Shown: positions 20,837 through 64,000, counted from the first letter of the stretch. The stretch is 64,000 nt of DNA from Dehalococcoidia bacterium (GCA_963664035.2 OY760867.2:3212503-3276502); one strand, 5' to 3'. Notes: generated by a model from the letters alone, not told the origin. Numbers and translations are program-made.

Positions 20837-20856
20837 TGCATCCCTTACTTAGGATA

Positions 20857-21477: not shown

Positions 21478-21478
21478 T

Positions 21479-22537: not shown

Positions 22538-22574
22538 CGCCCCACTCCTTCCGGCACAACAAATTATACTTGAT

Positions 22575-26047: not shown

Positions 26048-26049
26048 GG

Positions 26050-30748: not shown

Positions 30749-33700
30749 CTACTGGTCCTGGTCTTCGCCGCGCCTTCGGCGTCTGGCCGCAAGGAAGAGG
30801 ACCGCGGATGCCAATACGCCTATGGCGACGGCCACGGCTAGGAGCGCCGGCCACGCCAGCGGCGCCGGGGCGTCCCGGTCCACCGGCGCTCCCGGTGCGG
30901 CGGTCGGCTCCACGGCCGGCCCGGCGGTGGGAGTCGGCTCGGGCGTAGGCGTAGGCGTGACCGCAAGCGCCAACTCCGGCTCCGGCGTGGCCGTAGCTGT
31001 CGGCTCGGGCATGGGCGTGGGAGTAGGCTCCGGCGTGGCCGTAGCTGTCGGCTCAGGTGTGGGCGTGGGAGTAGGCTCCGGCGTGGGCGTAGCTGTCGGC
31101 TCAGGTGTGGGCGTGGGAGTAGGCTCCGGCGTGGGCACGGCTGTCGGCTCAGGTGTGGGCGTGGGAGTAGGCTCCGGCGTGGGCGCGGGTGTCGGCGCGG
31201 GAGTAGGCTCAGGCGTGGGCGCGGGTGTCGGCTCAGGCGTAGGCTCGGGCGTCGGCGCGGGTGTCGGCTCAGGCGTGGGCTCAGGCGTAGGCCCAGGCGT
31301 GGGCGCGGGCGTCGGCTCAGGCGTCGGCTCGGGTGTGGGCGCGGGCGTCGGCTCAGGCGTGGGTTCCGGTGTGGGCGCGGGCGTCGGCTCCGGCGTGGGC
31401 TCGGGCGTGGGCTCAGGCGTGGGCTCGGGCGTCGGCTCAGGCGTGGGCTCGGGCGTCGGCTCAGGCGTCGGCTCAGGCGTCGGCTCGGGCGTCGGTGTTG
31501 GTGTCGGCGTTGGCGTCGGCGTTGGCGTTGGCGTCGGCTCAGGCGTGGGTATGCGACCAAGCCCAGGCCTTGGTCTGGGATCGGGCTCTTCTATCACAGG
31601 AGGAGGCGCGGCGATGACCTCGCCCACCGTGACCGTCCCGATGGATATGCCGTGGTAGCCGGGGTCATGGCTGTGGGCGGTGTGCTCGACGGTGACCCCA
31701 TTGCGCGAGCCGATGTGTTCGCTGCCTGCGGTGATTCTGACGGTCTTCGCCTCGTTCCAGTCGTCGGGGGTGAAGAAGACGAGCGAGGGACTCGCCGTCA
31801 CGTCGCGGTCGCCGGTGACGTCTACCTTCACCACCACGTCGCTGGTGGGCCGCTCGTTGACGAGGACGATGGTGTAGGTGACGAACCTGCCTCCCTGCAC
31901 CTCGTCTATCTGCTCGGTGGATAGCTCCACGCCCCGGGTATTGACCACGGCGAACCCGGAAGGGTTGCCGTCGGCGGGGGACTTCACCACTGAGTTGACG
32001 GCCCGGACCTGGAACCCGTAGGAGTTCAGCGTGTCCAGGCCGTTGACGACGGCCTCGCGGGCATCGGCCCCGCCGGACACCGTCTTCCACGACGTGGGGG
32101 CTGTGCCGGCGCCATAGGATCGCTGCCGGTATTCCCATCCGGTGATGGTGGAGTCAGCGGGGCTGGGGTCGTCCCACGTGAGCCTGGAGGTCCCCAGATC
32201 CGTTCCGTTGCCGGCGGCAAAGTTTCGCGGTGGGGCCGGAGGCGTGACGGCGATGTTTTCGGTGGTCAGCTGGTTGATGGTGGCCGGGCCCGCTCCCGCC
32301 GTGTTCACCGCCCGAAGCTGGAAGCTGTAGGTCTGGCCTCGGTCCAGGTTGGTCACGGTGTATTCGGTCCTGGGCACGAGGGTGACGTTGGCCGGGGCCG
32401 CGCCGTCCGCGCCCGCCGCCGCCGAGGTGGTCTGCTCCACCATTGCGGAGATGTCCTTCCACCCCGTGTTGGTGGGCGGCGTCACCGTCGCCTCGTCCGT
32501 CGGCGGGTACGTCACGGTCTGCACAATGGGCCGCACTTCCACGGTGCAGACCTGGCTGGCTGGCGGCTGCCCGACGGGCGCGCACGTCGCGGTGTAGGAC
32601 GTGGTGGTTGCGCTGCTGCCCTGTATGTCCGCCCATCTGCCGAAGCTGCCCGTTCCCGTCTTCTGGCGGTACTGGTACTTCCGGATGGTGGCGTCCTGCG
32701 GGTCGTCCCAGGTGAGCGTCGTCCGATTATTGCCGGCGTTGAAAGCCGTGAACGTCCACGATGCATGGGCTTCCAGCGGGAACTCGACGTTCTTGATCCG
32801 CTTCACGGGGGCGACCTGGAAGAGGTACTCCTTGTCCGCGGCCAGTCCGCTGACCTTGTAGGACCTGATGGCGCCGTCGATATAGCCGCAGCAGCCGCCC
32901 AGGTACACCGTCGTGTCGGCTTGAGGCTGGGCGGAGAGCCTCACACTCACGTTCTGCGCCGTGTTCCAGTTGCCGGCGGTGAAGGTGAGCGTGGAGCGGC
33001 TGAAGACCACGCCGTCCATCGATAGCCTGACTCTTACGGTGGCGGCGGGCCTGGAGGCCAGCTTGACGCCGACGGTCTGGTTCGTGTTCCAGTTGCCGGT
33101 GGTGAAGGTGAGCGTGGACGAGCTGAAGTCCGGGCTGGTCGCGATGTCCGTCCATCCGCCCTCGACGGTCCCCGCTACGAAGTTCGACGTCGTGCCGCTG
33201 GGGGGCGTTGCCGTGGCCACGTCCGAGGCCGGGTGTACCACCGGGCGCACCTCCACCAGGCAGACCCGCCCGGTGGAGCATGAAACGTCCCAGGACGTGG
33301 TCGCTTCGTCGCTGGAGGGTATGTTCGTCCAGCTGTTGAAGCTGCCCGTTCCCGTCTTCTTCCGGTACTGGTACTTCACGACGTGGTTGTTGTTGGGATT
33401 GGCCCAGGTGAGCGTCGTCTTGTTGTTGCTGGCTGTGTAGGCGGTGAAGCTCCACGGCCCCACGGTCGTCACGATCATGCCGCTCTGCGACACGCCGCGT
33501 ATCTCGAAGGCGTACTCCGTGCCGTCGGCCAGGCCCGTCGCCCCGTAGGAGGTGGTGGACGACCCGCTGTTGGTTATATCCGTCCAGGCGCCGAAGCTGC
33601 CCGCTCCCGTCTTCTGGCGGTACTGGTACTTGTCGATAAAGCTGTTGTTCGGGTTGGCCCAGTACAGGGTGACCCGCCCGTTGGAGCCGATGTTGCCGAT

Positions 33701-36700
33701 GCTCCAGCTGTCCACCGCCGCAAGCGGCTTCTCCACGTTCGGCTTCACCGCCCGCACCTGGAAGGCGTAGGCCGTGCCGTCGGTGAGGCCGGTGACGGTG
33801 TAGGACCTCTGGGTCTTGGCCGCGCACGGCGAGGAGCAGGGTATGTTCGTCCAGGCGCCGAAGTCGCCCGTTCCCGCCTTCTGCCGGTACTGCCACCTGG
33901 TGACGGCCGGGTCGTTGGGGTTCACCCAGTACAGGGTCGCCTGGCCGCTGGCGGTGACGACGGCAAGGTCGTCCGGCTCGCCGGTGTCGGGGAGAACCCT
34001 GACCCGGTACCGCCACTTGACGATGTCGCTGTCGCTTGGGTTGGGCCACGACAGGGTGGTCTCCCCCGCGCCGCCCACGTTGGCGATGCTCTCGCTGAGC
34101 ACTGCCGGGCGCTCCTTCGAGGTGTTTTGCCGGGTCACGGCGCGTACCTGGAAGGTGTAGGTCGTGCCGTTAGTGAGGTCGGAGACCTCGTAGGAGGCGA
34201 GGGTGCGCACCGAGCACGGCGAGGAGCAGGGTATGTCCGTCCAGTCGCCGTAGTTGCCGAACTGCCCGCCGGAGGGCTTGGCCTTGGACCGGTACTGCCA
34301 CTTGGTGATGGCAGGGTCGTTGGGGTTCACCCAGTACAGGGTCGCCTGCCCGTCGGCGGCCACCGCCGCGAGGCTGCCCTCCATGATGCGGTACTGGTAA
34401 TTCCGGATGGAGTTGTCCTGGGGGTCGGTCCAGGTCAGGGTGGCCTGGCTGGCCCCCGTCTGCGTGACATTGCCAACGAAGTTCACCGGCTTGTCCGGCA
34501 GCAGCGTCACATCCTCCGCGTTGGACGCCGGGCCGTCGCCCGCCCGGTTGACGGCGCGCACCTGGAAGCGCATCACCTCGCCGTACACGCTCTCCACGAC
34601 GTGGAACGTGGACGAGTGGGTGCTGGTCGCCGTCTTCCAGAACGCCGCGCCCAGCAGCGTCGTCCATTCCCCTTCGTCGGTATCCGCGTCGCCGGTGGCG
34701 GCGCGGTACTCCCATCTGCTTACGGACGGGTCGGCCGGGTCGAGGGCGGCCCAGCTCAGCGTTACGTCGAAGCCCTGGTCCGACGCGTCGTAGGATACGG
34801 TCGTTATCCTGGAGAGGGTGGTCGCCGCCGGAGTCAGCGTTACGCTGGCGACGCTGGAGGCCACGCCGCCGCCGCCGAGGTTGACCGCCCGCACCTGGAA
34901 CCGGTATCCGGCCCCGGTGGCGCTGAAGGGCAGATCGTAGCTTCTCGTGTCCTTGTCGCTTCCTGGGATGTCCGTCCAGGCAGCGGCGTTCAGGTCAACG
35001 CCTGCCAGGGCGACCCGGTACTGCCACCTGACGATGGTGGGGTCCGACGGCAGCGTCCAGCTCAGCGTTATCCGGAAGTCGTTGGTGGCCTGCCTGTACG
35101 ACTTGGCGGCGGCGAGGCTCTGGGGCTCTCCGGGCTTGGCCGGGAGCTTGACCTGGTTGGAATCGTCCGACGCGGGGCTGTCGCCCGCGGGGTTTTTGGC
35201 GCGAACCTGGAAGGCGTAGGTCGTCGCGCTGGTCAGGCCGGTCACGGTGAACGTCCTGGTGCTCGCGTCGCTGGGGGACATGTCCGTCCACGGGCCGTAG
35301 CCGCCGAACTGCCCGCCCTTGGGCTTGGACTTGTAGCGGTACTGCCAGGCGGTTATGGACGGGTATCCGGGGTCGTTCCAGGACAGGGCGGCCTGCCGGA
35401 AGCCCTTTACCGCCGCCAGGCCCGTGGGCTTGAGGGGCTTCGTCGCGGCGGAGGCCACCGCCGAGCCGGGCCCGGCCACGTCGTTGGTGTTCACGGTGCG
35501 GACGCGGAAGTAGTAGACCGTGCCCGCGTCGAGGCCGGGGATGGTCAGCCTGTTGGTCGCCGAATTGCTCCCCGGGACATTGGCCCAGGCGCCCCAGGCG
35601 GCGGCGCCTTCCTTCTGGCGGTACTGCCACTTCCGGATGGCGGTGTCGGTGGTCGTAGCCCAAGAGAGGGAGACCGTCGTGCCCGCGGCGCTGGCCGACA
35701 GGTCCGTGGGCTGGGACGGCGCCGGCTGCGGCGTGGCGGACGCCTCGCCCGACGCGGCGCCCGTGCCGATGGAGTTGACCGCGCGTACCTTGAACGAGTA
35801 CTGCGTGGCGTTGGTCAAGCCGGCCACGGTGTAGGACATGGTGTCCGCGCCGGAATCGGTCACGCCGGTCCAGGAGCCGTAGTTGCCGCTCACCCCCTCC
35901 TTCTGCTGGTACTCGTACTCGGTGATGGAGGAGTCGTTGGGGTCGTCCCAGACCAGCACCACCTGCGCGTTGCCCGGCTCCGCCGCCAGGTTGGCGGGGG
36001 GCGCCGGGTACATGGTGGAGGCCTTCTCGTCCGACGGCGCGCCGATGCCGACGGCGTTCACCGCGCGAAGCTGGAACTTGTACGTGATGCCGTTCACGAG
36101 GTTTGTGACGGTGTGCGAAGTGGAGGTCGCGCTGGTGCTAACCGTCGTCCACGCCTCGAGGCCCGTGGCCGCCGCGGTGTTGTTCGACGAGACGTAGCCC
36201 CGCACCCGGTAGGTGTAGCGCGTCCCGCTGGTCAAATTCGCCGTTACGATGTGCGTCCTGGTGGCCGCGTTGCTGGACGAGATGTCCGTCCACGTGCTGC
36301 CGTCGGTGCTGTACTGCCACTTGGCGACGCTGCCGTTCTCGGGCCCCGTCCACTCCAGCGCGACCTCGGTGCTTGCGCCCCGGCCCACGACGAAGTCCGG
36401 GAAGTTCCCGGTGCGCATCCTGGCCTGCCACTTGGTGATGGTGGAGTTGTCCGCGCCGGCCCACGACAAGACCGTCTGCCGGTTTCCACCCGCCACGGTG
36501 AAGCCTACGGGCTTGGCCGGGAATAGAGCGAAGCTCACGGCGTCGGAGGCGGGGCTGATGCCGTTGGGCTTGGCGTTGTTGATGGCGCGTATCCGGGCCT
36601 TGTAGCTCGCGCCGTTGGAGAGGTCCAGCGTCACCTCGGTGGTGGCGTGGTCGCTGCCGGAGACGTGCCGCCAGCCGCCGGCCGCGGTGGGCGTTGCGCT

Positions 36701-39700
36701 CACCGGGCCCCTGGCGGTCCCGGCGACGAGATTGCCGCCGGAGTCCACGGCGCGCACCCGGTAGGCGTAGGCCGTGCCGTTGGTGAGGCTGCTCACGGTG
36801 GCCTGGCGGGCCGACGCGCCACCGGAGACGTCCGTCCAGCTCGCGCTCGTGGACGTGCTGTACTGCCACTTGGAGATGCCGGCGTTGCCCGCGTGCGTCC
36901 ACTTCAACGTCGCCTGGGCGTTGCCCGGTATGGCCTCCGTGCCGTCGTTGGCCACGCGCCACACCAGGTACTGGTAGCCCCAGCCGGTCGTACTGACGTC
37001 GGTGGTGGCCGTCCAAGAGAGGGTCGCCTGGCCGTCGCCGCCCGTCCCGCCCAGGCCCGCGGGCTTGGTCGGGCGGGCCAGCGGTATGACCGAGACCTCG
37101 GCGGAGACGGGGCTGTGGCCCAGCCCGTTGGCGGAGCGCACCTGGTAGGTGTACGTCTTGTTGTTGTCCAGGCCCGTGAGGGTCCTGGTGTGCCAGCGGT
37201 CGCTGCTGGACGTGCTCTCCTCGTTCACCGTTACCCAGTCGCCGTAGCCGCTCTCGGTGTCGCTCTTGGGCTTCACCCGGTACTGCCAGGAGTGGAAGTA
37301 GGGGCTCGAGTACGAGTTCATGGTGTTGTACCAGCGCAGCACGGCCTGGCCGTCGCCGCTGGTGACGGTGAAGCCGCTGGGCTTGAGAGGCTTGGTGGCG
37401 ACGGGGAAGGCCCAGTCCGTGTCGGAGGCCGCGCCCGGGCCGCTGCCATTCACCGCCCGCACCTGGAAGTGGTACTTCGTGTTCCACGTCAGCGGCGGCG
37501 TGTCGAAGCTCGTGGTGTTGCCGGCGCTGCCGGGCACGTCGGCCCACGCCGCCGACGTGATGGCGCTTGCGCCGCCGCTCGTGTAGCGGTACTGCCAGTG
37601 GGTGATAGTGGAGCCGCTGGGCGCGGTCCAGCTCAACGCGGCGAACCCAAGCCTGCCGCTCGCGGCGAATCCCGTCGGCTTGCCGGGCAGGGCGCGGGGG
37701 ATGGCCGCCGCCTCGTCCGACTCGTCGCCGTCGCCGGAGGCGTTCACGGCGCGGACCTTGAACCTGTAGGTCGTGTCGTTCGTCAGCCCGATCAACTCGA
37801 CGGACGTGGTGGCCGCGCCGCTGTTGGATATGGCCGTCCAGTTGCCCCAGGTGTTGGCGCCCTCCTTCTGCCGGTACTTCCAGCCGGTGATCGTGGAGTT
37901 GTTCGGGTCCGTCCAGCTCAGCGTCACCTTCGAGACCTTGGGCGTCGCCGTCAGGCCCGCGGGCTTGGCCGGCGTGGGCAGCGCGGGCTTGGCCTCGGCG
38001 GACTCGTTGGAGGCCGGGCCGGCGCCGGCGGCGTTGACGGCGCGCACCTTGAACCTGTACGTCGTGCCGTGGGTCAGGCCGGTCACGGTGTATGCCAGGT
38101 TGTTGCCGGACGCAGTGGGCGTCATGTCCGTCCATGCGCCGTAGCTGCCGTAGCTGCCGCCGTCGGGCTTGGACTTGTACTGGTACTGCCACGCGGTGAT
38201 GCTGTCGTTATCGGGGTCAGTCCAGGACAGGTCGACCTGGCCCTCGGTGTACAGGATGGACGTCTTGTCGGTCTTGGCGGCGGCGGTCGGGCGCGACGGC
38301 TTCGCCGGCAGCGTGGGAGCCGACACCTCGTCGGACACCGAGCCGTTGCCGGAGGTGTTCACGCCCCGCACCTGGAAGGTGTACGTAGCGCCGTTGTCCA
38401 GGCCCGTAACCGCGTAGGTCGTCGTGGAGTTGCCGGGGCTTGGCCCGGACGTCCAACTGCCGTAGTTGCCCGTTCCCTTCTTCCGCCGGTACTGCCAGCT
38501 ATCGACGTGGGTGGAGCCGCCCTTGGTCCAGACCAGCGTGACCTGGGCGTCGCCGCCGGTGGCGCTGAGCGAGGGGGCTTCCGGAGCGCCGGCCACGGGC
38601 CGGGCCGAGGCCTCGTCGGACGCCGGGCCTGGGCCGTTGATGTTGACGGCGCGAATCTTGAAGGTGTGGGTGACGTTGTTGCTCAGGTTGCTCACGGCGT
38701 AGGACGCGGTGGACGCGCCGCTGTTAGGCACGTCGGTCCACTTGCCGTACCCGCCGGTCGTCTTGTACTGGTACTGCCACTTCTCGATGCTGGCGTTGTT
38801 GGGGTTGGTCCAGGACAGGGCGACCTGGCGGTTGTTGGGCAACGCCGAAAGGCCCGTGGGCTTGGAGGGAACGGGGATGGGAGTGGCCGACGCCTCGGCA
38901 GAGGCCGCGCCGTCGCCGGCGGAGTTCACCGCGCGAATCCTGAATGTGTGGGACGTGTTGTTGGTCAGCCCCGTTACGGTGTAGGACTTGGTGGACGCCG
39001 TGCCGTTGGGCACCGCCGTCCACGAACCGTAGCCGCCGCCGGTCTTGTACTGGTACTCCCAGCCTGTGATGGTGGAGTTGCCGGGGGCGTGCCACGTGAG
39101 ATCGACCGACTGGTGCTTGCCCGCGGCGGTGAGGCCCGTGGGCTGGGCGGGCACAGGCACGGGCGTGGCCGTCCGCTCGTCGGACGGCGCGCCGATGCCG
39201 TAGGAGTTCGATGCCCGGATTCGGAAGGTGTACTCCGTGTTGTTGGTCAAGCTGCCGACTGTGTGAACGGTGGCGGCGGCCGAGGTGGACATCTGCGTCC
39301 ACGAGCCGTAGCTGCCCGCGCCGGACTTCTGCTGGTACTCCCACTTGTCGATGGTGGAATCGCCGGGGTCGGTCCACTTCAGCTCGACCGACTGGTGCTT
39401 GGCCACGGCGGTAAAGCCGGCGGGCTTGGCCGGCGCGCTCTTCGGCGTCGCCGTCGCCTCGTCCGACGCCGCCCCCTCGCCCGACGCGTTCACCGCCCGC
39501 ACCTTGAACTTGTACTCCGTGTCGTTCGCCAGTCCGGTTACGGTGACGGACGTCGCGTGAGACCCTATGGCGGAGCTGAGGTCGACGGTCTTGGAGCCGC
39601 CTGGAGGCGCTGCCGCCAGCTTGACGGACACCCCCTGCGCCGTGTTCCAATTCTGCGTCGTGAAGGTGAGCGTGGAGGGCGCGAAACGAACGTTGACGCC

Positions 39701-42700
39701 CCTGTCGAAGGTTATCGTCACGTCGGAAGATGGGGCGGCGGGCAGCTTGACTACAACAATCTGCACAGTGGGGTAGTTCTGGGTGGTGAAGGTAACCGCG
39801 GACGGGTTGGAAACCAGGGGGACCTCCACGTCGGTCCAGGTGTACGGCGGTGGGCTCAAGTCGAAGGGCGAGGTCGTTGCCGTGTACTGCCACTTGGTTA
39901 TGGACGAGTCGCCCGGATCGTTCCACGCCAGGTCGACCGACTGGTGCTTCGGCGTCGCCGCCAACCCCGACGGCTTCGACGGCTTGGCGATGGGCGTGGC
40001 TTTCACGCCTACGGACTCCGCCCCGTTCCCGTAGCTGTTCACGCCGCGTACCTTGAAGGTGTACTCCGTGTCATTGGTCAAGCCGGTCACGGTATAGGTG
40101 ATAGCGCCCACCGTCCCGGTAACGGTGGCCGACGCCCAGGTGGACCCGCCGTCCTTGCTGTACTGGTATGAGGTGGCCGCGATGCTGCCGCCGTAGGTCC
40201 ACCTGAGGGTGACCTGGGCGTCGCCAGGCGCGGCGGACTTCAGGTCCGGGGCGGTGGGCACGGGCCGCGGGGTGGCCTTCTTTTCGTCGGACGGCGCGCC
40301 GTCGCCGGTGGAGCTCACGGCGCGAACCTGGAAGGTGTGCTCCGTGTCGTTCGTCAGCCCGGTCTTGGTGTAGGCCGTGGTCGCCGCGCCGCTGCTAGGA
40401 ATGCTGAACCAACCGGTGTAGCCGAAGACGGTCTTGTAGCGGTACTCCCAGCGGATGATCGTGCTGTCGCCGGGGTCGTCCCACGCCAGTATGACGCTGG
40501 CGTTCTTGGGCGTAGCCGTGAACCCCGCCGGCTTCGCCGGCTTCACTACTGTCGGCGTCGCCGTCGCCTCGTCCGACTCGGCGCTCGCCCCATACGCGTT
40601 CGACGCCCGTATCTGGAAGGTGTACGCCGTATCGTTCGTCAGCCCCGTCACCGTGTAAGACGTGGCCGTATCCGACATGGACATCTGCGTCCAGGAGCCG
40701 TAGCCCGCCGTGCTCTTCTTCCGGTACTCCCACTTATTGATGGTGGCGTCATTCGGATTCGTCCAGGCCAGGTCGACGGATGCGGCCTTCGCCGTCGCCG
40801 TCAAACCCGTCGGCTTCGCCGGCGAGCTCTTCGGCGTCGCCGACTTTTCATCGGACTCCGCGCCGTCCCCGGAGGCGTTCACCGCCCGGATCTTGAAGGT
40901 GTGGGACGTGTCGTTCGTCAGCCCCGTCACCGTGTGGGACGTGGTGGACGCCGTGCTGTTGGGCACGTCCGTCCACGAGCCGTAAGCGCCGTCGGTCTTG
41001 TACTGGTACTCCCAGCCGGTGATGGTGGAGTTGTTGGAATCCGTCCACGCCAGGTCGACCGACCGGTGCTTCGGCGTCGCCGTAAACCCCGCCGGCTTCG
41101 ACGGCCTGGCGAGGGGCGTGGCTTTCACGCCTGCGGACTCCGCCCCGTTCCCGTAGCTGTTCACGCCGCGGATCCTGAAGGTGTACTCCGTGCCATTGGT
41201 CAGGCCGGTCACGGTAAAAGTGATAGCGCCCACCGTCCCGGAAACGGTGGCCGTCGTCCAGGTGGACCCGCCGTCCTTGCTGTACTGGTATGAGGTGGCC
41301 GCGATGCTGCTGCTGTAGAGCCACCTGAGGGTGACCTGGGCGTGGCCCGGCGTGGCGGACTTCAGGTCCGGGGCCGTGGGCGTGGGGCGCGGCGTGGCCG
41401 AAGCCTCGGAGGACGACGCGCCGTCGCCGGACGGGTTGACGGCGCGCACCTGGAAGGTGTACTCCGTGCCGTTGGTCAGCCCGGTCTTGGTGTAGGAGAT
41501 GGTGTTGGCGCCGCTGCCGGCAATGTCGTACCACGTGGTGTAGCCGCCCGTGGTCTTGTACCTGAACTGCCACTTGGTGATGGTGCCGTCGTTGGCGTTG
41601 TCCCAGTCCAGGAGCGCGCCGGCGCTCTGCGCCGTCGCGGTGAGGCCGGTGGGCGCGGCCGGCGGGGGCACGGGCGTGGCCGACACCTCCGCCGACGCCG
41701 TTCCGTTGCCATAGGAGTTCACGGCGCGAATCCTGAGCTGGTGCGCCGTGTTGTTGGTCAGCCCCATCACCCTGTGGGACACGGTGTCCTTGTCGCTGTC
41801 CGTGATGGCCGTCCACGCCGCGCCCCAGGCGCCGCCCGTCTTCCATTGGTACTCGTAGCCGGTGACCGTCGTGTCCGTCGTCTTCGTCCAGGTCAGGTCC
41901 ACCGCCTTGTCCCTCGCCGTCGCCGCGAGGCCCGTGGGCGCCGCCGGGACCGGCTTGGGCGTCGCCGACGCCTCGTCCGACGCCACGCCGTCGCCGGAGG
42001 CGTTGACGGCGCGCACCTGGAAGGTGTAGGCCGTGTTGTTGGTCAGCCCGGTCCTGGTGAACGTGGTGGTAGCCGCGCCGCTGCTTGGAATGGCAGTCCA
42101 TGAGCCGTAGCTGCCCGTGTCCTTTTGCCGGTACTCCCAGCGGGTTATCGTGCCGTTCCCCGGGTCCGTCCACGCCAATACCGCGCCCTGGTGCTTGGGC
42201 GTGGCGGTGAACCCCGCCGGCTTGGCCGGCTTGGTCGATGCGGCGGCGGCGTCCGACGCCAGGCTGTTGCCGACGGAGTAAGCAGCCCGCACCTTGAATC
42301 GATACGTCTTGCCGTAGGACAGCCCCGTAGCCGTGTACGACGACGTGCTGGCGTTGCTGCTTGGCACGTCGCTCCAAGTCGCGCCGTCGTCCTTGCTGTA
42401 CTGCCACCCCGTTATCGTCGAGTCGCTGGCGGCGGTCCAGGACAGGTCGACGGAGGTGTCGGTGGACGTGTTTATGGCCGCCGTCAGGCCGAGGGGCTTG
42501 TACATGGGCGTCGCCGTCACCGACGCGGCATCGCCGTAGCCCGTGGAGTTCGCCGCCCGCAGGCCGAAGGTGTAGGCCGTGCGGTCGGTCAGCCCGGTAA
42601 CGGTGTGGGACGTGTAGGTCGCGCTCGTGCTGATCCGCGCCCACGCCTTCAGGCCCGCCACCGCCACGGTGTTGTTCGCCGCGATGAAGCCCCGCACCCG

Positions 42701-45700
42701 GTAGGTCACGCGCGCGCCGTTGGTCAGCGTCGCCGTCACCGTGTAAGAGGTCTGCGTCCCCACCGCGCAGGGCGACGCGCAGGGGATGTCCGTCCAGTTG
42801 GAGCCGTCGGCGCTGTACTGGTACTTGGTGATGCTGCCGTTGTTGGGGTTGGTCCACTCCAGCCTGGTCTGCTGGCTCGCGCCCGTCCCCACCACGAAGT
42901 CCGCGCCGGTCCCCGCGCGGCTCCGCAGCTCGTAGGAGCTGATGGTGGAGTTGGACGGGTCGTCCCACGCCAGGGCCGCCTGCCCGTTCACCGCCGCCGC
43001 GGCCAGGCCCGTGGGCGCGGCCGGCACGCCGGCCGTGGCCCTCAGCGCGTTGGACTCGGCCCCGTCGCCGAGGCTGTTCACCCCGCGCACCCGGAAGGTG
43101 TACGTCGTGCCGCTGGCCAGGCTCGTCACGGTGTATGAGCGGGTGGTCGAGGCGCTGCCGGGTATGCTCTGCCAGCCCGCGCTCGTGGACGTGCTGTAAT
43201 CCCAGCTTGTGGCCGCGGCGCTGCCGGAGTAGGTCCACGTGAGGACGACCGAGGCGCTGCCGGACGGCGTGGCCGACGCCAGCGTGGGCGCGGTCGGCAC
43301 GGCCAGCGGCGTGGCCGACACCCCCGCCGACGCCGTCCCGTCCCCCGAGGCGTTCACCGCCCGCACCTGGAAGGTGTAGGCCGTGTTGTTGGTCAGCCCG
43401 GTCCTGGTGAAGGACGTGGTGGACGCTACGCTCCCCGGGATGTTCGTCCAGGCCCCGTAGCCGCCCGCGCTCTTGTACCGGTACTGCCACCTGGTGATGG
43501 CGGCGGTGGTGGAGGCGTTGCTCGTGTCCGTCCACGCCAGTATGACGCTGCCGTTCTTGGGCGTAGCCGTCACCGTGGGCGCGGACGGCCTGGCCAGTGG
43601 CGTAGCCTGGACCGCGCCCGGGGCGCCGTTGCCCGCAGGACTCACCGCCCGCACCTGGAAATCGTAGGCGGAGCCGTTCGTCAAGCTCCCCACCGTGTGC
43701 GTCCTCGTATCCTTCGTCGTCGCCCGCACCTCGACGTCGTTGTTCACGTTGGGGATCACGCCGCTGTTGACGTAGAGGCTGGTCGTGCTGGGGCAGCCGC
43801 TGTTGGAAGCGGTATTGCAGATCTCCGTCCAGGCGCCCCACGTCTGGGTCCCGGCGCGCCGGCTCCGCCACTCGTACCTGGTGATGAGGGAGTCGTTGAG
43901 GTTGGTCCAGGTGAGCAGCAGATAGGGGGCGCCGGTGCCCGCCCGGTAGCTGCCCTTCAGCGCCAGCTTCGTCCCGGTCACTTCCGTCCAGCCCAGCGTT
44001 CCGGTGGTCGGCCAGCCGGCGGTGGTCAGCTTGTGCCGCGTTTCCCACGAAGTGATCGACGAGTCCGCCGGCGACAGCGTCCACGAAAGCGTCGCCGTTC
44101 CATGCCCCACCGTCGCGGTAACCGCCGGCGCAGCCGGCCCCGGCGGCGGCGGGTTCGGCGTCGCTTTCGCCTCGTCCGACCCCGCCCCGTTCCCCGCCGC
44201 GTTGACCGCCCGCACCTGGAACGTGTACTCCGTACCGTTCGTCAGCCCCGTCGCCGTGTGCGAAGTGGCGGACGCGCTCGTGCTTACAGTCTCCCACGCC
44301 TGCAGGTTCGTCACCGTCGGCGCAGTGCCGGAGGACACCGCCGCCCGCACCTGGATCGTATGCGTTCCGCTCGGCAGCGCCGACAAACCGCCGGTGGAGA
44401 AGGTATGCGAAGTAACCGACGGACAGCCCGGATTCGCCGCGGTCCAGCAGATGCCCGTCCACGTGATCCCGTCCGCGCTGTACTCCCACTTGGTGACGTT
44501 GGACGTGCCGGACGCGGTCCACGACAGGGTAAACGTCTGTCCTCCGCCGTCGCTGACCACGAAGTCCGCGTTGCTCCCGGTCCACTGCCGGAGCTGCCAC
44601 CCGGAGACGTAGTCGTCATCCGGATTCGAATAGGTCCACGCCAGGTCTACGGACCCGTCCTTCGCCGTCGCCGTGAGTCCCGCAGGCTTCGATGGGACCG
44701 CCAGCGCCGTCGGCGTCACCGTCGCGTCGAGGCCATTCCCGGTCGAGTTAACCGCCCTCAGGCTGAACTTGTACGTCGTCCCGCTCGCCAGCCCCGCAGC
44801 CGTGTGCGAAGTGGCCGCCGCGCTCGTGCTGATCTCCTCCCACACCTTCAGCCCCGTCACCGCCACCGTGTTGTTGTTCGAGATGTATCCCCTCACCTGG
44901 TAGGTGTACTGCTGCCCGAAGGTCAGGGACTGGTTGATGGTGTGGGACATCGGGGTCCCCTGCGGGCAGGTCGACCCGCCGCCGCACGAGATGTCATACC
45001 ACCACCAACCATTCAGGCTGTACTGGTACTTGGCGATGCTGGAGTCGTTGAGGGCGGTCCACTCCAGCGTCAGCTTCTTGCTCGCGTACGCGCCCATCAC
45101 GATGTCCGCCGCGCTCCCCGACCGCGTCCGCATCTGGTACGACGTAATCGTCGAGTCGGCCGGGTCGGTCCACGATAGGAACGCCTGGGTCCCGGCGGAC
45201 TTGGCCGCCAGCCCGGCGGGCTTGGACGGGACCGCCACCGGCGTCCCCTTGATCGACGACGACGCCCCCTTCCCGTCCGAATTCACGGCCCGCACCTGCA
45301 CCTCGTGCTCCTGCGCGTTGATCAACCCCCCCACGTCCACGCTCGTCGCCGACGCGCTTATCGCCACCCAGGGCTGCCATTGAGTCGTCCCTCCCAGCGC
45401 CCTGTAGCGGTACTCGTAGCCCGTGATCGCGTTCACGTGCCCCGTCGGGGCCGTCCAGCTCACCCGCAGCGTCGCGTTGCCCGCCGCCGCGGACAGGTCC
45501 GCCGGCGCGTCCGGGACTCCCGTCGGCGTGACCGTAACCTCGTCCGAGACCGGACCGGGCTCGTCGTAGGTGTTCACGGCGCGCAGGCGGAAGGTGTGCG
45601 GCGTGTTCCCGGCAAGGCCCGTGACCGTGTACGCGGAGGAGTCGCCGCCCAGGCGCGTGGACGTCCACGCGCCCCAGCCGCCGTCGGTCTTGTACTGGTA

Positions 45701-48700
45701 CTCGTACGCCTTCCGGCCGCCGTGGGCCTTGTCGGACGGCCCGGAAGGGGGAGTCCAGCGCAGCCTTGCCGTGTTGGTCCCGGCGGAGGCCGCCAGGCCC
45801 GTGGGCTTGCCGGGCCGCCACGAGGTGTTGCTGCGGGCGGAGTCCGAAGGCGCGCTCTTGCCCGCGCTGTTCACGGCGCGGACGTGGAAGGTGTAGAAGG
45901 CGTTGCGAGTCAGGTGATGCACGTCGTGCTCGACGGTGCTCGTGCCGCTGTTGGGGATGGCGATCCAGGGCGTGGGAACGGTCATGTCGGCCTGGGGCTG
46001 GGCGTTCAGCCGGACGCTGACCGTCTGCGCCGTCCGCCAGTTCGCCGTGGTGAAGAACACCGCGTGCGGGCTGAAGGTCACGCCATACTGGGCAAAGGAT
46101 ATCTGCGTGGGGACCAGGGGCTTGGTGGCTGGCCGGACGCTGATCGTCTGCGCCGTGCTCCAGTTGGCGGTGGTGAAGGTCAGGCTGGACGCGCTGACGT
46201 TCACGTCCGGGCGGAGGTCGAGTGTCTTGGGCACGTTGTACTTGCCGTTGGTCTTCGGCGGCTCGGCGGTCAGCTTGACGTTGACCGTCTGCGCCGTGTT
46301 CCAGTTGCCGGTGGTGAAGGTGAGGCTGGACGGGGAGAACGTCATACCGCTCCGGGAGAGGGACACCGTCACCGTGGCCGTGGGGCGTTGGGTCAGCTTG
46401 ACCTGGACCTGCTGGGCCACGTTCCAGGGCTTGGGGTTGGCGTAGTTGTGGAATCTCACCTCGCCCGGGGTCGCCACCGGGCCGCTCACGGAGGCGATGC
46501 CGGACCACGCGCCGACGGAGGCATGACGGTACTCCCAGCCGGTGATGGAGGAGTCGTTGGGGTTGTCCCAGGTCAGCCTGATGCGGCCCTTCTGGTGACA
46601 TTCGCCCAGGACCAGGTTGCATGACGGCGGCTCGACGAAGCCGCTCCCCAGGCCCGCGGCCTGGAGGCCCGTGGGCTTGGCGGGAATGCCGACGGGGGTG
46701 GCCGTCGCGCTATCGGAGGCGGCTGAGTTCCCCTTGTAGTTCACCGCCCGCACCTGGAACGTGTAGGCCGTGCCGTTGGTCAGCCCCGTCGCCGTGTAGC
46801 GCCTGGTGGAGGCGCCGCTGCTCGGCACGTCCGTCCAGGTCGTACCGTTGTCCTTGCTGTACTGCCACTTGTAGATGGACGCGTCGCTCGGGTTGTCCCA
46901 CAACAGGTAGGCCGACCGGTTCCGGGCCGCGGCCGTCAGGCCCGTGGGCTTGGACGGGGCCGCGCTGGGCAGCGTGACGCTCGCGCCGGAGGACGGCTTG
47001 CCGTTCAGGATATCGGCGCCCGTACCCTTCCGGGCGCGGATGCGGAACTCGTTGGCGGCGCCCTCGGCGAGGCCGGCGGTCACGTCGTGGGTGATGGTGG
47101 TCGAAGCGCTGTTCGGCATGGCCGTCCAGGCCAGGGGCCATCTCATCCCGGTGGAGCCCTTGGGCCCGGAGGTGTCCGTCAGCACGTCGGCCAGCAGGTA
47201 CTCCTCGTTGGCCTTCAGCGCCCGCACCTGCACCTGGTAGTCGGTGCTGGTGGCCAGGCCCGTGATGATCTTGCTGGCGCCCGTCCCCGCGTCGGCCCAG
47301 TCGCTGAACTCTCCCGCGCCGGTCTGGGTGCGGTAGCGGTAGCCCGTCGCCCCGCTGACGGCCACCCAGTTGACGGTGACGCTGCCGCTGGCGTTGGTGG
47401 TCACGTAGGCCGTGCCGTCCAGGATCTTGGTCGTCGTGGCCGTTGGCGCAAGGTACTGCACCTGGACGTAGTAGGTCGTGCCGCTGACCAGGGTGGAGTC
47501 CTGGATGCGATAACTCGTCCTGTCCTTGCAGGCGGTGTCCGTACTCTGCCGGCAGACGTTGGCCCAGCTTCCCCAGGCGCCGCCGTCGCTCTTGATGCGG
47601 TACTGCCAGGCGGTTATGTTCGAGGTGCTGGCGGGAGCCTGCCAGCGCACTTCCTCAAGCTCCTGGGTGTTGGGCGTCCGCACCTGGTACTGGTAGCTCG
47701 TGATGTTACTGTTGCCCGGGTCCGTCCAGCCTAGGACTACCTTGCCGGTTTCAGGGGAGGCGGCGAAGTCCGTTGGCGCGGCCAGGGCGGGCCCGCCGGC
47801 GTCTTCGACGCCGGCGGCGCGGCTCTCCCCGGCGTTGTTCACCGCCCGGACACTGAATGTGTGCCCGCCGTAGTTTGTCAGGCCCGTGAAGGTGTGGCTG
47901 TAATCCGCCTGATTCTGAACGATCGCCACGTCCGTCCAGGGGCCGGCCCGGGAGCGGTTTTTGGTCACCCAGCGCACCTGGTGCTTGGTCACCGGGTCGC
48001 CCGGCGGGTCGGCCGGCTTGGTCCACGACAGCGTCGCTTGCCCGTCGTCGGTGGTCACTCGGAAGTTGGTGGGCTTGCCGGGGACGCCTACCTTATCCAG
48101 GGCCACGGTGTAGGTGGTGGACTCTGAGTTGGTGCTGTCCTTGACCTTGAAATTGAAGCTGGTCTCGTTGGAGAAGCTGCTCCCGGGCCGGTATTGCAGA
48201 CGCTTCAGCTTCCAGTTGCCCGTGGTGGCCGTGGTCACTTCCATCCCCGCGGTGACGAGCGTTGTCCTGTTGCAGGTACTCCTGGTGGGCCTAGTCTTGC
48301 AGAATGAAGTTACGGTATTTCGCTCATGGACGTACAGCGCCCCGGTGGCGGGCAGCGACTCGATGATGATCGACTGGTACGTGTTGCCGTCGGCGTCGAC
48401 GTACGTGAAGTCCTTGAAGGGGATGTAAACGTAGGTCGGCGCGGAAACGTCGTAGGACACGTCCACGCTGGTGGGCGGCGTATTGCCGTCCACGGCCCGC
48501 GCCACCACCTCCGGCGCGGCGATGCCGCTGTAGTTGGCGTCCGTGCTGGTCGCCGTGTGAACCAGCGTGGTGGACTCCGTGTCGACGTCGTTCAGGTCCG
48601 GCGTTACGGAGAGCGTGACCGTCTGCGCCGTGGTCCCGTTGCTGGACGTGAAGGTCAGCGTGGCCTGGTCCCCGGTCGTGTTGGGGTCGGTATCGAAGGT

Positions 48701-51700
48701 GGGGCGGCCCTGGTGGGTACCGGCCTTGCGGGTGATGGTCACGGTGACGTCGTTCGTGGGATTCGTGCCCAGCCGGACGGTGTAGGCCCCCGTCGTGGTC
48801 CCGGTGAGCGGCTCGTTCACGTCCACCGCCGTACTGCTCACCACCACCCAGCCCTTGAAGCCGGCGGTGGCGTCGGCCGAGGGCTGGCTGTAGTCCGCGC
48901 CCGACTTGGTGGCCTGCACCATCAGCGTGTAGGTGGTGCCTGGGACGAAGCGGTTGCCGCTCTCCGGTACCAGGTGCGTCGCCACGTCCCCCGCCGTTAC
49001 GTGGCGGGCGTCGTCATAAACCTCTGAGCCGGACTTCCAGTAGAGCCGGTAGCCCGTGGCGTCGGTCACCTTGGTCCAGTTGACGCGGATGCCGCCGCCC
49101 TCCTGGGAGGCGGTGACGCCGGTGACCTGCGCCAGCTCGTCGTCGTCCACGATGTTCAGGACGGGGGCGGTAGCAGTGGTGTTGCTGACCCACGTGGACG
49201 TCGCCGTCGTGCCGCCCGTCTTCGCCGGGTGGGTGGCCAGGGTCATCGCCTTGCTGTAGTTCGAGGCGTCGGTGTAGTTGTTCACCGCCGCCAGCGTCTG
49301 CGTCCCGCTCGTGCTTCCCGCCGCGATGGTGACGTCGCCGACGGTGTACGCGCTGGCGTCTTGCGGCACGGCGACCACCAGGTCCCGGTTCCACTCGGTG
49401 GTGGCGGTGACGGTGACGGTGGTCTGGGTCGCGCCGCCCACGCGCTCGTAGATGGTGGTCGGACTCAGCGTCAGCGATACGACGGGCCGCTGGTCGGCCG
49501 CGGTCAGCGCGCCGTACTTCAGCGCCGGGTACTGGTTCGCCGTGCCGAAGTCCCACGGGTCGTCCTGGCCGGTGGCGTGGTTGTTGTCGTTGTCCGCGTT
49601 GTCCAGGTCCAGGTTCCAGTCCTTGTAGATGTCGGTGCTCTGGGTCCCGTACGCCGTGGGCGCCTGGAGCTGGCTCGTCGTCTTGGCCGTGCCCTCGCCC
49701 CTGTCCGACCGCCCGTCGGTCTCGGAGTCGTAGTAGGACGCGGTGGTGGAGCCCGTTTGCTTGTAGCCCACCAGCCCGCCGGTCTCGTAGTTAGAGTTGG
49801 TGGAGTGGGTGACCGCCCCGGTGGCGAAGCTGTACTCGATGTTCCCGCGCTGGAATCCCACCAGGCCGCCCTCGTAGGCTTTGGCGCCGCCGGGAGCGGT
49901 GGCCGAGACGGAGCCACGGGCGTAGCTGACGCGGATGGTGGCATTCGGGCTTAGCTGGCCCGCCAGCCCGCCGGCCTGGGCATGCTTTCCGCTGCCGCCG
50001 GGAGCGGTGGCCGAGACGGAGCCGGCGGCGTAGCTGGCGTCCACGCGGGTTGCGGCGGCGTTAAGCACGTGCTCGCCCACGGCCCCGAAGAGCCCTCCGG
50101 CGAAGGTGTTGGTGCCGCTTTGCGTCCCCTGCGCAACGGCCGTGACGTCCGCCCACGAGTAGCTGGAGATCGTCACGCCGTCTTCGAGCGTCCCCGCCAG
50201 CCCGCCCACGAAGAGGTGCTTGTCGGCGGCGGTCATGGTGGACGTGGCGGAGACCGAGCCCGTCGTGTAGGAGTCCTCGACGGTGACGCTGCTGCCGAAA
50301 ATCCTGCCGGAAATCCTGCCCGCCAGCCCGCCCGCGTAGACGTGCCCGCCGCTGGACGTGGTGAGCTTGACGTCCACGTTCGTGACGCCCACGTTCGTGA
50401 TAGGCCCATCCTGGATGTGGCCGAAGAGGCCGGCGTAGCTGCCCGACGTGCTGTTGATGAACAGGTTTTCGATTTCGTAGCCGTTGCCGTCGAACCGGGC
50501 GGCGTAGAAGACCGTGCTAGTCCCGCCGATGGGGACCCAGCCCACCCCGCCGTTCCAGTAGGTGTCGCCCAAGTCCGCGCCGCCGCTGCCGTTGGTGTCG
50601 AAGTCGAGGTTGTTGGAGAGCTCGTAGCCCTCGCAGACCTGGTTGGCGGGCAGCGTCTCGTCCTCGTTGCAGCCCATGCCGGCCTCGGCGGTGGGGAAAG
50701 CGGACTCGTAGTTGGCCCCGTCGCCGGAAGCCACCGAGCCGTCGCCGTCCAGGTCCCAGCGGATGGCGTTGAGCTGCGCCAGCGTGGTTATCTCTATCAG
50801 CCCGTCGTCGTCCGCGTCGTAGTCCTTGCCCGGGCTGGCGGTCGCCGACGCCCACGGCCCGTCGTCGTAGCCCGTCTTGGTGGCCGCGAGGCGGAAGGTG
50901 TAGACGCCGTTGGAGGTGAGGGGGCTGATGGTGTGCGGCGAAGTGACGCTGGCGACCTCCGTCCACGTCGTATCCGCCGACTCCTTGTACTCCAGCTTGT
51001 TGCCCGTGGCCCCGGGCTGCCGCGTCCACGTGAGGGTGACCGAGGTGTAGTTGGCCCCTCCCGTAAGGGTGAACGCCGGCGCGATCAGCCCGAAGTCGTC
51101 GTCCTCGATGGTCAGCGACGCGCCGGAGGGCATGGCGACCCAGTTCTGGTCCGTCGTCGGCGTCAGCGTGACCGAGGCGTCCGTTGCGCCGGTCGTGTTG
51201 TTTACCGCCTCGACGATCAGCGTTCCCGTCGTCGCCCCCGCCGCGATGACCAGGTCCGTCGTGTACGTGTTGCCGGACTTCAGCCTGTATGTGGCGGCGG
51301 TCTCGTTGACTTCCAGCGTCACCGGCACCTCCTGGGCGGGGCTGATGGTGGCCGTCAGCGTCGACGTGGCAACCGGACTCGCGCCGCAGGCGTTCGTGTC
51401 CGTCCCCTTGGTCGTCTCGCAGATGCTGGCCGGCGACACCGCCACCGTCACCGACGCCCGCTGGTCCGCCGCCGTCAGCCCGTAGTCGAGAACGGGGTAC
51501 TGGCTGGACGTGCCGAAGTCCCACGGGTCGTCGGCTGCTGCCGTCCCGCCCACGTCGATGTTCCAGGCGGCGTAGATGCCTGTGCCGTAGGCCGTGGGCG
51601 TCTGAAGTTGGGTGGTGGTCGTGCCGGCGCCCGCCCCGGTGGCCGTGATGCCCGACGTCGTCGTGTCCCAGTACGAGTTGGCGACCGTCGCCCCGGCGTG

Positions 51701-63700: not shown

Positions 63701-64000
63701 GGCGTAGATGCCCGTCTCCGTAGTCGGCGTCTTCAATGCGCTGGTGGTCTTGCCCTCCGGCGCGTTCGAGTCCGTGTCGTCGGCGATGCCGGAGGTCGTG
63801 GCGTCCCAGTAGCTGTAGTTGACCGTGCCGGACTGGGTCGCCGTGAAGCCGCCGGACGCGGTGGTCGCGCCGGTCCCGGTCCCCGATCCCGTGTGGCTTC
63901 CCGTGGAGAAGGACGCGCTGATGGTCGCGCCGCTCGCGTTCGTCGCCGCGAACCCGCCCCGCGCGACCTTGTTGCCCTTGACCGTGCCCGCGCCGTGGGA
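30749..64000 (-). CDS. Giant cell-surface protein (GLUG modules + cadherin/Ig-like segment + ~53 FN3 + PT stalk + C-terminal TM anchor); at least 11,083 codons, 5' end beyond the right window edge
   Basis: The track ORF 30749..63736 starts at an internal TTG. The same frame translates without a stop to 64000 as ...[36 protein letters not shown]...[28 protein letters not shown](L)[10 protein letters not shown], which is the normal module sequence. The stop TAG is at 30749-30751. The amino-acid composition is coherent and non-degenerate across 33 kb. Confidence 0.9.
30785..30853 (-). other. C-terminal transmembrane anchor followed by RRRRR stop-transfer tail
   Basis: [34 protein letters not shown]-stop. 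I see no LPXTG, PEP or GG motif directly before it. Confidence 0.7.
30860..31606 (-). repeat. Pro/Thr/Glu-rich low-complexity stalk (PTPEPTPEP...), with 48-bp tandem DNA units at ~31021-31165
   Basis: The protein runs [30 protein letters not shown]...([12 protein letters not shown])n...[16 protein letters not shown]... On the plus strand, gagtaggctccggcgtggccgtagctgtcggctcaggtgtgggcgtgg is repeated 3 times with point changes. Confidence 0.9.
31950..48095 (-). repeat. Array of ~53 fibronectin type III domains (manual count of F-strand Y-x-F-x-V-R-A-V-N-type motifs)
   Basis: The recurrent unit is P(A/S)KP(T/A)G(L/F)TAxxxxxxVxLxWxDPxxxxIxxWxY(R/Q)[37 protein letters not shown](Q/K)(V/I)RAVNxxGxGxxSxExxATP. 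A C-terminal Ig-like domain at 31610-31945 carries ...[20 protein letters not shown]... Confidence 0.85.
48095..48870 (-). other. Unique central segment: Ig-like domain ([18 protein letters not shown]) plus cadherin-like domain ([14 protein letters not shown]...[22 protein letters not shown])
   Basis: The translation runs [40 protein letters not shown]...[15 protein letters not shown]...[21 protein letters not shown]...[31 protein letters not shown]...[10 protein letters not shown]. It occurs only once in the window. 48110-48420 looks less GC-rich by eye. Confidence 0.6.
48870..64000 (-). repeat. At least seven ~2-kb tandem GLUG modules, each with the same six parts
   Basis: Each module runs in order: a Ca-binding DxDxDG pair, a Cys pair, a GLUG beta-helix-like repeat region, an SYWDT motif, an Ig-like DDD(E/F)L domain and an FN3 domain. 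DYD(A/N)D(N/G/D)(D/N)GLI(E/D/G) motifs lie at ~62.92, 60.95, 58.92, 56.89, 54.84, 52.83 and 50.81 kb. Each module has 6-10 (A/V)GGL(V/A/I)G repeats, followed by [31 protein letters not shown]...[17 protein letters not shown]. Confidence 0.85.

Follow-up and report, generated by a model that had tools for sequence, protein, structure and literature searches.

Evidence for nested fibronectin type III domains in the putative stalk of a giant surface protein of a Dehalococcoidia bacterium

Can a fibronectin type III (FN3) domain hold a second FN3 domain in one of its loops and still fold as one domain? The question is raised by a stretch of 64,000 nucleotides from a Dehalococcoidia bacterium (GCA_963664035.2, OY760867.2:3212503-3276502; called the window, with positions counted from its first letter), in which a minus-strand open reading frame (ORF) encodes a giant protein with a long FN3 array. 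An earlier note on this DNA had proposed that, between positions 36020 and 47785, FN3 domains sit inside other FN3 domains at seven or more sites. The two termini of an FN3 domain are at opposite poles, an awkward geometry for a domain that is to sit in a loop, and to our knowledge natural insertions of a fold into its own copy are rare.

The explanation that we favour takes this region to code for the stalk of a giant protein on the cell surface of a Dehalococcoidia (Chloroflexota) bacterium, C-terminally anchored in the membrane, and places nested FN3 domains within that stalk; for both statements jointly we put the probability at roughly 0.8. In a nested unit, host strands A-B-C would be followed by one to several FN3 guests and then by host strands C'-E-F-G, the break in one unit falling after C'. 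The outer halves would fold together as one normal FN3. Through the host the chain would continue along the stalk, with the guest hanging as a side branch from the loop at the host's C-terminal pole.

Split matches in the FN3 array

An FN3 hidden Markov model (HMM) of 94 positions was built on six clean units of the giant protein, and the whole protein was scanned with it. Protein positions are given as amino-acid (aa) numbers, residue i corresponding to nucleotide 63736-3(i-1). Every peptide quoted in the earlier note was recovered where it had been placed, on the minus strand and in a single ORF and frame, and all seven of the sites listed there are split in the HMM scan. At each of them a match to the N-terminal half of the model (N-half; HMM 2-4 to 38-53) is followed by one or two near-complete FN3 matches (about 9-20 to 75-94) and then by a match to the C-terminal half (C-half; 42-49 to 83-94). 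The units are listed below, divided as the nested-domain reading would have them, with the previously reported ranges in brackets. Units B and G are extra split hosts within 36020-47785, and their inserts are not FN3 domains.

46967..47791, minus strand: unit A, aa 5316-5590 (46990-47785, aa 5318-5583); host N-half 5316-5356, guest 1 5357-5440, guest 2 5441-5529, host C-half 5530-5590; HMM (aa 5318-5574) 4-40, then 20-75 and 12-81, then 46-83; rejoined host 64.0 bits over HMM 5-83
45821..46639, minus strand: unit B, aa 5700-5972; FN3 host with a 162-aa non-FN3 beta-repeat insert (aa 5753-5914); HMM 14-51, gap, 45-90
44702..45241, minus strand: unit C, type I, aa 6166-6345 (44700-45240, aa 6166-6346); host N-half 6166-6209, guest 6210-6292, host C-half 6293-6345; HMM 2-43, 16-83, 43-86, with the C-half at Pfam fn3 profile positions 42-75; rejoined host 78.0 bits
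44150..44701, minus strand: unit D, type I, aa 6346-6529 (44150-44700, aa 6346-6529); host N-half 6346-6388, guest 6389-6475, host C-half 6476-6529; HMM 2-41, 18-86, 44-94; rejoined host 98.9 bits over HMM 3-94
43595..44146, minus strand: unit E, aa 6531-6714 (43590-44140, aa 6533-6716); host N-half 6531-6592 including strand C', guest 6593-6666 without a G strand, host C-half 6667-6714; HMM 2-53, 20-78, 49-87, the insertion lying in the C'-E loop
42500..43036, minus strand: unit F, type I, modelled, aa 6901-7079 (42500-43035, aa 6901-7079); host N-half 6901-6943, guest 6944-7024, host C-half 7025-7079; HMM (aa 6904-7077) 3-42, guest 13-82, 42-94
39440..39991, minus strand: unit G, aa 7916-8099; FN3 host with a non-FN3 beta-repeat insert of about 93 aa; HMM 2-41, gap, 54-94; rejoined host (aa 7916/8050) 105.6 bits over HMM 2-94
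36527..37087, minus strand: unit H, type II, aa 8884-9070 (36530-37085, aa 8884-9069); host N-half 8884-8926, guest 8927-9012, host C-half 9013-9070; guest full length, including the G strand and 'ATP'; HMM 2-38, 9-94, 42-91
36011..36526, minus strand: unit I, type I, aa 9071-9242 (36020-36530, aa 9069-9239); host N-half 9071-9111, guest 9112-9188, host C-half 9189-9242; HMM (aa 9073-9241) 4-41, 16-87, 42-93; rejoined host 87.3 bits

The same division is obtained with an independent curated model. With Pfam fn3 (PF00041) the C-halves cover positions 41/42 to 75-83 of the profile, and the nested segments score 39.3-46.3 bits against its gathering cut-off of 25. When the guests were excised in silico, the rejoined halves gave one full-length FN3 match of 92-110 aa over HMM 2-94; these hosts score 32-106 bits (33-165 for ordinary units) and align column for column with ordinary units. 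The FN3 core residues (Trp in strand B, Tyr in C, Leu after E and Tyr in F; 'LxW', 'YxYR', 'GL', 'YxFxVRA') are present in the rejoined hosts and in most guests. The strict order of N-half, full domain and C-half (N-F-C) was found in none of 363 other fetched proteins, mostly FN3 arrays, which contain 3,671 full-length FN3 matches; the split pattern is therefore not an artefact of the HMM.

The flanking pieces might be what is left of separate, degenerated FN3 domains, or else structured linkers, rather than the two halves of one domain. Taken on their own the half-domain matches are modest (11-49 bits), and half-domains are the least confident parts of a 751-residue AlphaFold2 model (see below). 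However, the N-halves always end at about HMM 38-43 (53 in unit E) and the C-halves always begin at 42-49, which are complementary positions. The numbers of the two halves are balanced, N stands ahead of C every time, and the rejoined halves are full-length matches within the range of ordinary units. Moreover, the confident model of unit F reassembles both halves, purifying selection acts on the halves as it does on whole domains, and by established topology a three-strand A-B-C fragment alone cannot make an FN3 sandwich. It seems very improbable, then, that the flanks are remnants or linkers.

Split envelopes, which the earlier note had predicted, are thus present, the halves being complementary around HMM position 42, and the two FN3 guests that it placed in one host at 46990-47785 correspond to the two near-complete matches between the halves of unit A. 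Two of its statements need narrowing. The cut after host strand C describes most units, but in unit E (aa 6531-6714) the N-half reaches HMM 53 and the cut comes after C'. The guests, which had been called complete, do give near-complete matches, but most of them span only HMM 13-86 or so, without the 'KPxKPxGLTA' start and the 'GxGxxSxxxxATP' end.

Taken together, the split observation is confirmed. The nested-domain reading is supported, for unit F by a predicted structure and for the six other units by sequence comparison, and the number of FN3 hosts that have one loop interrupted by at least one further FN3 appears to be at least seven and probably nine.

Predicted fold of a nested unit

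AlphaFold2 was run on unit F (aa 6901-7079) with an alignment of seven sequences, made up of six window units and one metagenomic homologue; the misaligned P0020 was excluded. The model has a mean predicted local distance difference test score (pLDDT) of 91 and a predicted template-modelling score (pTM) of 0.85. Ahead of the guest lie host strands A (12-16), B (19-23) and C (34-41), and behind it host strands E (143-147), F (155-162) and G (171-175). The seven guest strands are 46-49 (short), 54-62, 71-75, 82-84, 95-103, 113-117 and 123-125. A break of one residue follows the last of these, and then a long strand (127-136), part of which appears to be host C', so that the guest's last strand would run on into it. 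The FN3 fold is a seven-strand beta-sandwich with sheets A-B-E and C'-C-F-G; in this prediction three host strands from one side and four from the other make up such a sandwich, the guest having seven strands.

When the model was compared with known structures by Foldseek, the alignments to single FN3 structures of 93-115 residues (4u3h, 1x5z, 6pol_E, 8orl_C and 4wtw_B) extended over 172-184 columns, the model being 179 residues long; they skipped about 80 residues and had target-normalised template-modelling (TM) scores of 0.62-0.71. Such a span can arise only with both outer halves in one FN3. Tandem FN3 structures fitted poorly (TM about 0.2, root-mean-square deviation about 30 A). The structural test proposed earlier, namely whether the host halves form one sandwich, is therefore borne out in unit F by the pLDDT of 91 and the Foldseek span. 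No entry covering both domains was found in the PDB (by fold or by sequence profile) or in BFVD, the query-normalised TM reaching 0.43 at most.

Formally, the order A-B-C, B-C-C'-E-F, C'-E-F-G can be read in more than one way, each copy of the strand set being FN3-like, and type I guests without canonical A and G strands leave a choice of pairing. The host N-half might thus complete the guest, or halves might be swapped between neighbouring units or molecules as in a domain-swapped daisy chain. With such pairings, however, a Foldseek span of about 115-125 columns would be expected instead of 172-184, and the pTM of 0.85 corresponds to one well-defined arrangement. We consider a different pairing unlikely and keep to hosts whose two halves pair with each other.

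Two recurrent kinds of junction can be distinguished. Type I reads '...[AP]DF[VI]VG.G' ... 'NNTVAATGL.AW'; type II, which recurs in many metagenomic proteins, reads '...P.GGL.A[FI].G' ... 'LGD..ATP..AGGW'. The guests of type I match the HMM from strand B to strand F only, the canonical A and G ends being gone. Such trimming would bring the guest ends to one pole, as insertion into a loop requires, and the BC, C'E and FG loops of the guest would then point away from the host and the stalk. FN3 binders use the BC, C'E and FG loops, and the C'E loop of the guests is often enlarged. In a plain tandem array the neighbours cover both poles of each domain, so that the guests may be laterally displayed binding or bracing modules.

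The enlarged C'-E loop of most guests (units A, C, D, E and F, and guests g1 and g2 of the complex region described below) also carries a cysteine pair, which ordinary units and hosts lack. Its motifs are 'IPCxSPC', 'CNTASNSGC' and 'CRQSTDTAC', an example being 'CASPC' at aa 6986-6990. The pair may represent a disulfide-stapled loop on the pole facing away from the host.

The same FN3 loop appears to take other cargo as well. Beta repeats of about 45 aa lie in the loop region that holds the guests elsewhere, at three places (in unit B, in unit G and at aa 10205-10283):

45995-46480, minus strand: beta repeats
39590-39868, minus strand: beta repeats
32888-33124, minus strand: beta repeats, aa 10205-10283

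A Pfam search of the non-FN3 inserts (E up to 1) gave nothing credible; elsewhere there were weak matches to LapA, Big_9 and Ig_SibA, all below threshold. In P0013, a metagenome protein of 251 aa, two FG-GAP-like repeats (PF14312 listed) interrupt one FN3 behind its strand C, and the host then resumes with 'WTAIP...YTVTGL...FWIRA'. Motifs akin to those of the 45-aa insert repeats were also seen in stand-alone domains at aa 4955-5215 and 10596-10712.

Conservation, origin and a candidate recursive nest

Three metagenome-assembled genomes (MAGs) of Dehalococcoidia (OY760908.2, OY762956.1 and CAXXLI010000002.1) contain orthologues of unit F that are 87-90% identical to it, each in a frame open over 6.5 kb with no stop codons. 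The collinear order of half (N, C) and full (F) matches is identical in all three (C F F NFC NFC NFC F F NFC F F...). Compared with these orthologues, the ratio of nonsynonymous to synonymous substitution rates (dN/dS) is 0.23-0.29 for the host N-halves, 0.24-0.27 for the host C-halves, 0.36-0.41 for the guests and 0.30-0.38 for ordinary units. Values of 0.23-0.41 indicate that all parts are under purifying selection. The same-fold nesting is conserved in related genomes.

These comparisons also bear on whether misjoined repeats have made chimeric junctions that mimic nesting. Long repeat arrays misassemble readily, and several related contigs are noisy (P0015, P0016, P0020, L005). Nevertheless, the ORF is unbroken over more than 33 kb, three MAGs assembled independently of one another, two of them chromosome-level records, share the identical architecture, dN/dS is well under 1, and the same junction types occur in proteins that are only 35-45% identical. 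An assembly artefact can therefore be given next to no weight as the source of the nested units.

When 1.84 billion representative proteins were searched exhaustively with a profile, 24,502 FN3 proteins were obtained at E up to 0.001, and many metagenomic proteins have 20-60 tandem FN3 units. Of the best 150 of the 24,502, about 17 give a single continuous match to the nested profile over its full length. Nested units are present in 13 of 144 newly fetched top-scoring FN3-array representatives (131 have none), and the count for all 388 fetched proteins is 49 strict nested units in 25 of them, 26-93% identical to the window units. Ten nested proteins were looked up, and all are ENA metagenome proteins. 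One protein, P0016 (locus L001 6533-7768), has a direct 38-aa duplication (KWQMRHWTGSAADVVVGTGSSQEIALSWT...) that adds a half-domain ahead of a type I guest; since its contig is a frameshift-ridden long-read assembly, the duplication may be an artefact.

How did the nested units arise? The type I hosts (units C, D, F and I) are each other's nearest relatives. Their guests g6210, g6944 and g9112 are likewise mutually nearest; g6389 is nearest to ordinary units, as are the remaining units that are not of type I. This would put the number of insertion events behind the seven sites at four or more, with entire modules duplicated afterwards. Nesting had been called recurrent, which holds for the number of sites; four of the seven units, however, are copies of one ancestral host-plus-guest module, so that there were fewer independent insertions than sites. 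Sequence comparison would thus point to a few independent insertions of FN3 cores into one loop, after which host-plus-guest modules would have been copied whole and guests gained or lost lineage by lineage. Origin by a single tandem duplication was rejected, because it cannot yield the order A-B-C, guest, C'-E-F-G; two separate duplications would be needed, and insertion is simpler.

A relative with guests at other places allows the comparison of occupied and guest-free sites that had been suggested earlier. Homologue P0137, which has the same C-terminal linker and anchor, carries FN3 guests at two sites. One guest, of about 87 aa, occupies the C-C' loop in a domain of the g5 type (see below), and the other, of about 75 aa, the C'-E loop in the last host. 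At both of these sites the giant protein has short loops and is guest-free, with flanks that align well. The contig of P0137 (L005) is frameshift-rich.

Near the C-terminal end of the array, outside the range reported earlier, lies a more complex region:

32249..34501, minus strand: complex region, aa 9746-10496; HMM parse N F N F F F C F C

Its order is H1 N-half, g1, H2 N-half, g2, g3, g4, H2 C-half (split by two beta repeats), g5 and H1 C-half. Tentatively, and at somewhat below even odds, this region may be read as a recursive nest, in which H1 would enclose g1, the split H2 and g5, and H2 would hold three FN3 guests and the beta-repeat insert. The two N-halves and two C-halves are balanced and in properly nested order, and P0126 (78% identity) is collinear with the region over the reach of that fragment. 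A different origin, by out-of-register duplication, would leave the second N-half (aa 9882-9914) as an orphan half-domain or as part of a long linker, and no true two-level nest. This second N-half resembles the start of a g3-type domain ('SIANVGG..TLSW' and 'SIGNIGS..TLYW'), and g1 and g2 are 67% identical, as expected if a guest plus the next N-half had been duplicated. In addition, fragment P0020 has a g1/g2 hybrid and lacks the second N-half, and AlphaFold2, in a model of low confidence, assembled neither H1 nor H2. Yet the second N-half is kept in P0126, P0127 and P0129 at 67-78% identity, and the contig of P0020 is a long-read one riddled with frameshifts, where repeats that resemble each other can be collapsed. 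We give the duplication an appreciable chance, though one well short of even.

If the recursive nest is real, the stalk would be a branched tree of FN3 domains in a single polypeptide, built through one permissive loop, and the guest of P0137 inside a g5-type domain would make three levels. Pulling force would not reach the inner domains before their hosts had unfolded, and the protein would offer a natural system for the study of co-translational folding and of force unfolding of discontinuous domains.

Several points weigh against the overall explanation of a stalk with nested FN3 domains. The confident model is that of unit F, itself a prediction from seven sequences, and for the other six units the case is made from sequence. 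It is from the string of strands and FN3 topology that we deduce how the guest is oriented and that its ends are close. Type II guests (e.g. aa 8927-9012) keep full A and G strands, with their ends far apart. For the complex region, the AlphaFold2 model (751 residues, four-sequence alignment) has a pLDDT of 44 and a pTM of 0.21, with host halves below 50. A role of the guests as side-displayed binding or bracing modules is one that we infer, and they may have it. Finally, the true N-terminus of the giant protein and any signal peptide fall beyond the window.

The giant gene, its neighbours and known systems

The minus-strand ORF runs from 30749 to beyond 64000 and encodes more than 11,083 aa, its 5' portion lying past the window end. 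In the ORF list it is entered as 30749..63736 with a TTG start at 63736. The frame is nonetheless open to 64000 and the sequence there is mid-module, which indicates that the gene continues past the window. Its parts are as follows.

30749..64000, minus strand: giant ORF, an intact open frame of more than 33 kb with Pfam fn3 and Glug matches
aa 1-5215, minus strand: N-terminal modules, at least seven of about 650 aa each, with FN3 and a GLUG-motif region (Pfam)
aa 5216-10594, minus strand: FN3 array, about 55 FN3 domains
aa 10715-10960, minus strand: linker rich in Pro, Thr and Glu, about 245 residues of TPEP/TPTP repeats
aa 10961-10995, minus strand: hydrophobic transmembrane helix followed by RRRRR, as read from the sequence (with the linker, 30752..31594)

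About 29 units of the array are ordinary tandem FN3 domains, like beads on a string. The C-terminal helix with RRRRR is probably a membrane anchor. In its three-part shape the C-terminus resembles a sorting signal, and homologue P0137 ends alike. None of the curated sorting-signal families of NCBIfam matched the C-terminus (for TIGR01167, LPXTG_anchor, the score was 12 bits, below the cut-off of 15.9, with E 0.27), nor does an LPXTG motif occur in the giant protein.

Several long ORFs overlap the giant gene between 30000 and 58000, among them 49982..57295 (plus strand, 2437 aa), 33383..36526 (plus strand, 1047 aa) and 40848..44600 (minus strand, 1250 aa). At 68-70% G+C with few stop codons, these are expected by-products and not genes. 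A complete Hma-type defence system adjoins the giant gene on the minus strand (17483-30554), with two further ATPase genes amid its own, and a sensor kinase gene is also found in the window:

27177-30554, minus strand: HmaA, SNF2 helicase with NOV_C (PADLOC E 3.5e-205)
26050-27378 and 21479-22537, minus strand: two AbiLi/PDC-M38A-like ATPase genes
22575-25547, minus strand: HmaB, DUF1156 adenine methylase (PADLOC E 3.5e-143)
17483-20836, minus strand: HmaC, DUF499 ATPase with an N-terminal Swt1-like HEPN domain (PADLOC E 2.7e-123)
13980-16355, plus strand: hybrid sensor kinase/response regulator of 791 aa with GAF, PAS, HisKA, HATPase, receiver and winged-helix output domains

FN3 is among the commonest and most engineered of domains. 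The acceptance of whole FN3 domains, FG-GAP repeats and beta repeats at the C-C'/C'-E pole gives protein designers a ready rule for FN3 (monobody) scaffolds that are to be branched or multivalent. In these uncultured Dehalococcoidia, a stalk that exceeds 11,000 residues and bears side branches suggests a role in lateral binding or bracing. Where giant surface proteins are annotated as a linear series of domains, the result can be misleading. Half-domain matches are usually discarded as fragments, so that such architectures are probably under-counted.

Nesting of FN3 in FN3 had been thought undescribed, and in agreement with this we found neither a PDB entry nor a paper on FN3 in FN3; phrase searches of about 8 million papers for nested, inserted or split FN3 domains gave nothing relevant, which does not prove that no description exists. 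Tandem FN3 arrays, as in titin, fibronectin and large bacterial surface proteins, belong to the same family (PF00041); the window array adds nested units to them. The nearest FN3 precedent is that of the insulin receptor and IGF-1R, in which an FN3 is split by a large insertion like the window hosts. In the insulin receptor, FnIII-2 consists of two sequence-distant parts (2a and 2b) parted by the insert domain and is still one FN3 (PMC10618199, PMC10560217). That insert, however, is largely flexible, is cleaved into alpha and beta chains and bears the ligand-binding alphaCT, whereas the window inserts are folded FN3 domains or beta repeats. It reportedly lies in the C-C' loop, as in most window units. 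The insulin receptor is moreover a single eukaryotic case and the window has a repeated module; the analogy is one of architecture and implies no homology of the insertion.

For nesting at several levels in an elongated bacterial surface protein, the nearest precedent is the pneumococcal pilus adhesin RrgA. Its domain D3 lies within D2, and D2/D3 lie within D1; D4 is the only domain called IgG-like (PMC5333627). RrgA is stabilised by isopeptide bonds and has a cell-wall sorting signal (CWSS) by which it is sortase-anchored, whereas no LPXTG was detected in the window protein, which does not belong to the sortase-anchored pilus adhesins. The innermost guest of RrgA, D3, is said to have a fold unlike its host, and the window protein differs in that FN3 is placed in FN3, many times per chain.

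In engineered insertions a folded guest is placed in a surface loop of a host, and monobodies use the BC, DE and FG loops as a binding face. These constructs are artificial and mostly combine unrelated folds, whereas the window case is natural, same-fold, repeated and conserved. Insertion engineering in general is covered elsewhere (PMC12328240). Domain insertion as such is a known path of protein evolution, and what appears new here is nesting of FN3 within the same fold, repeated along one chain and possibly recursive.

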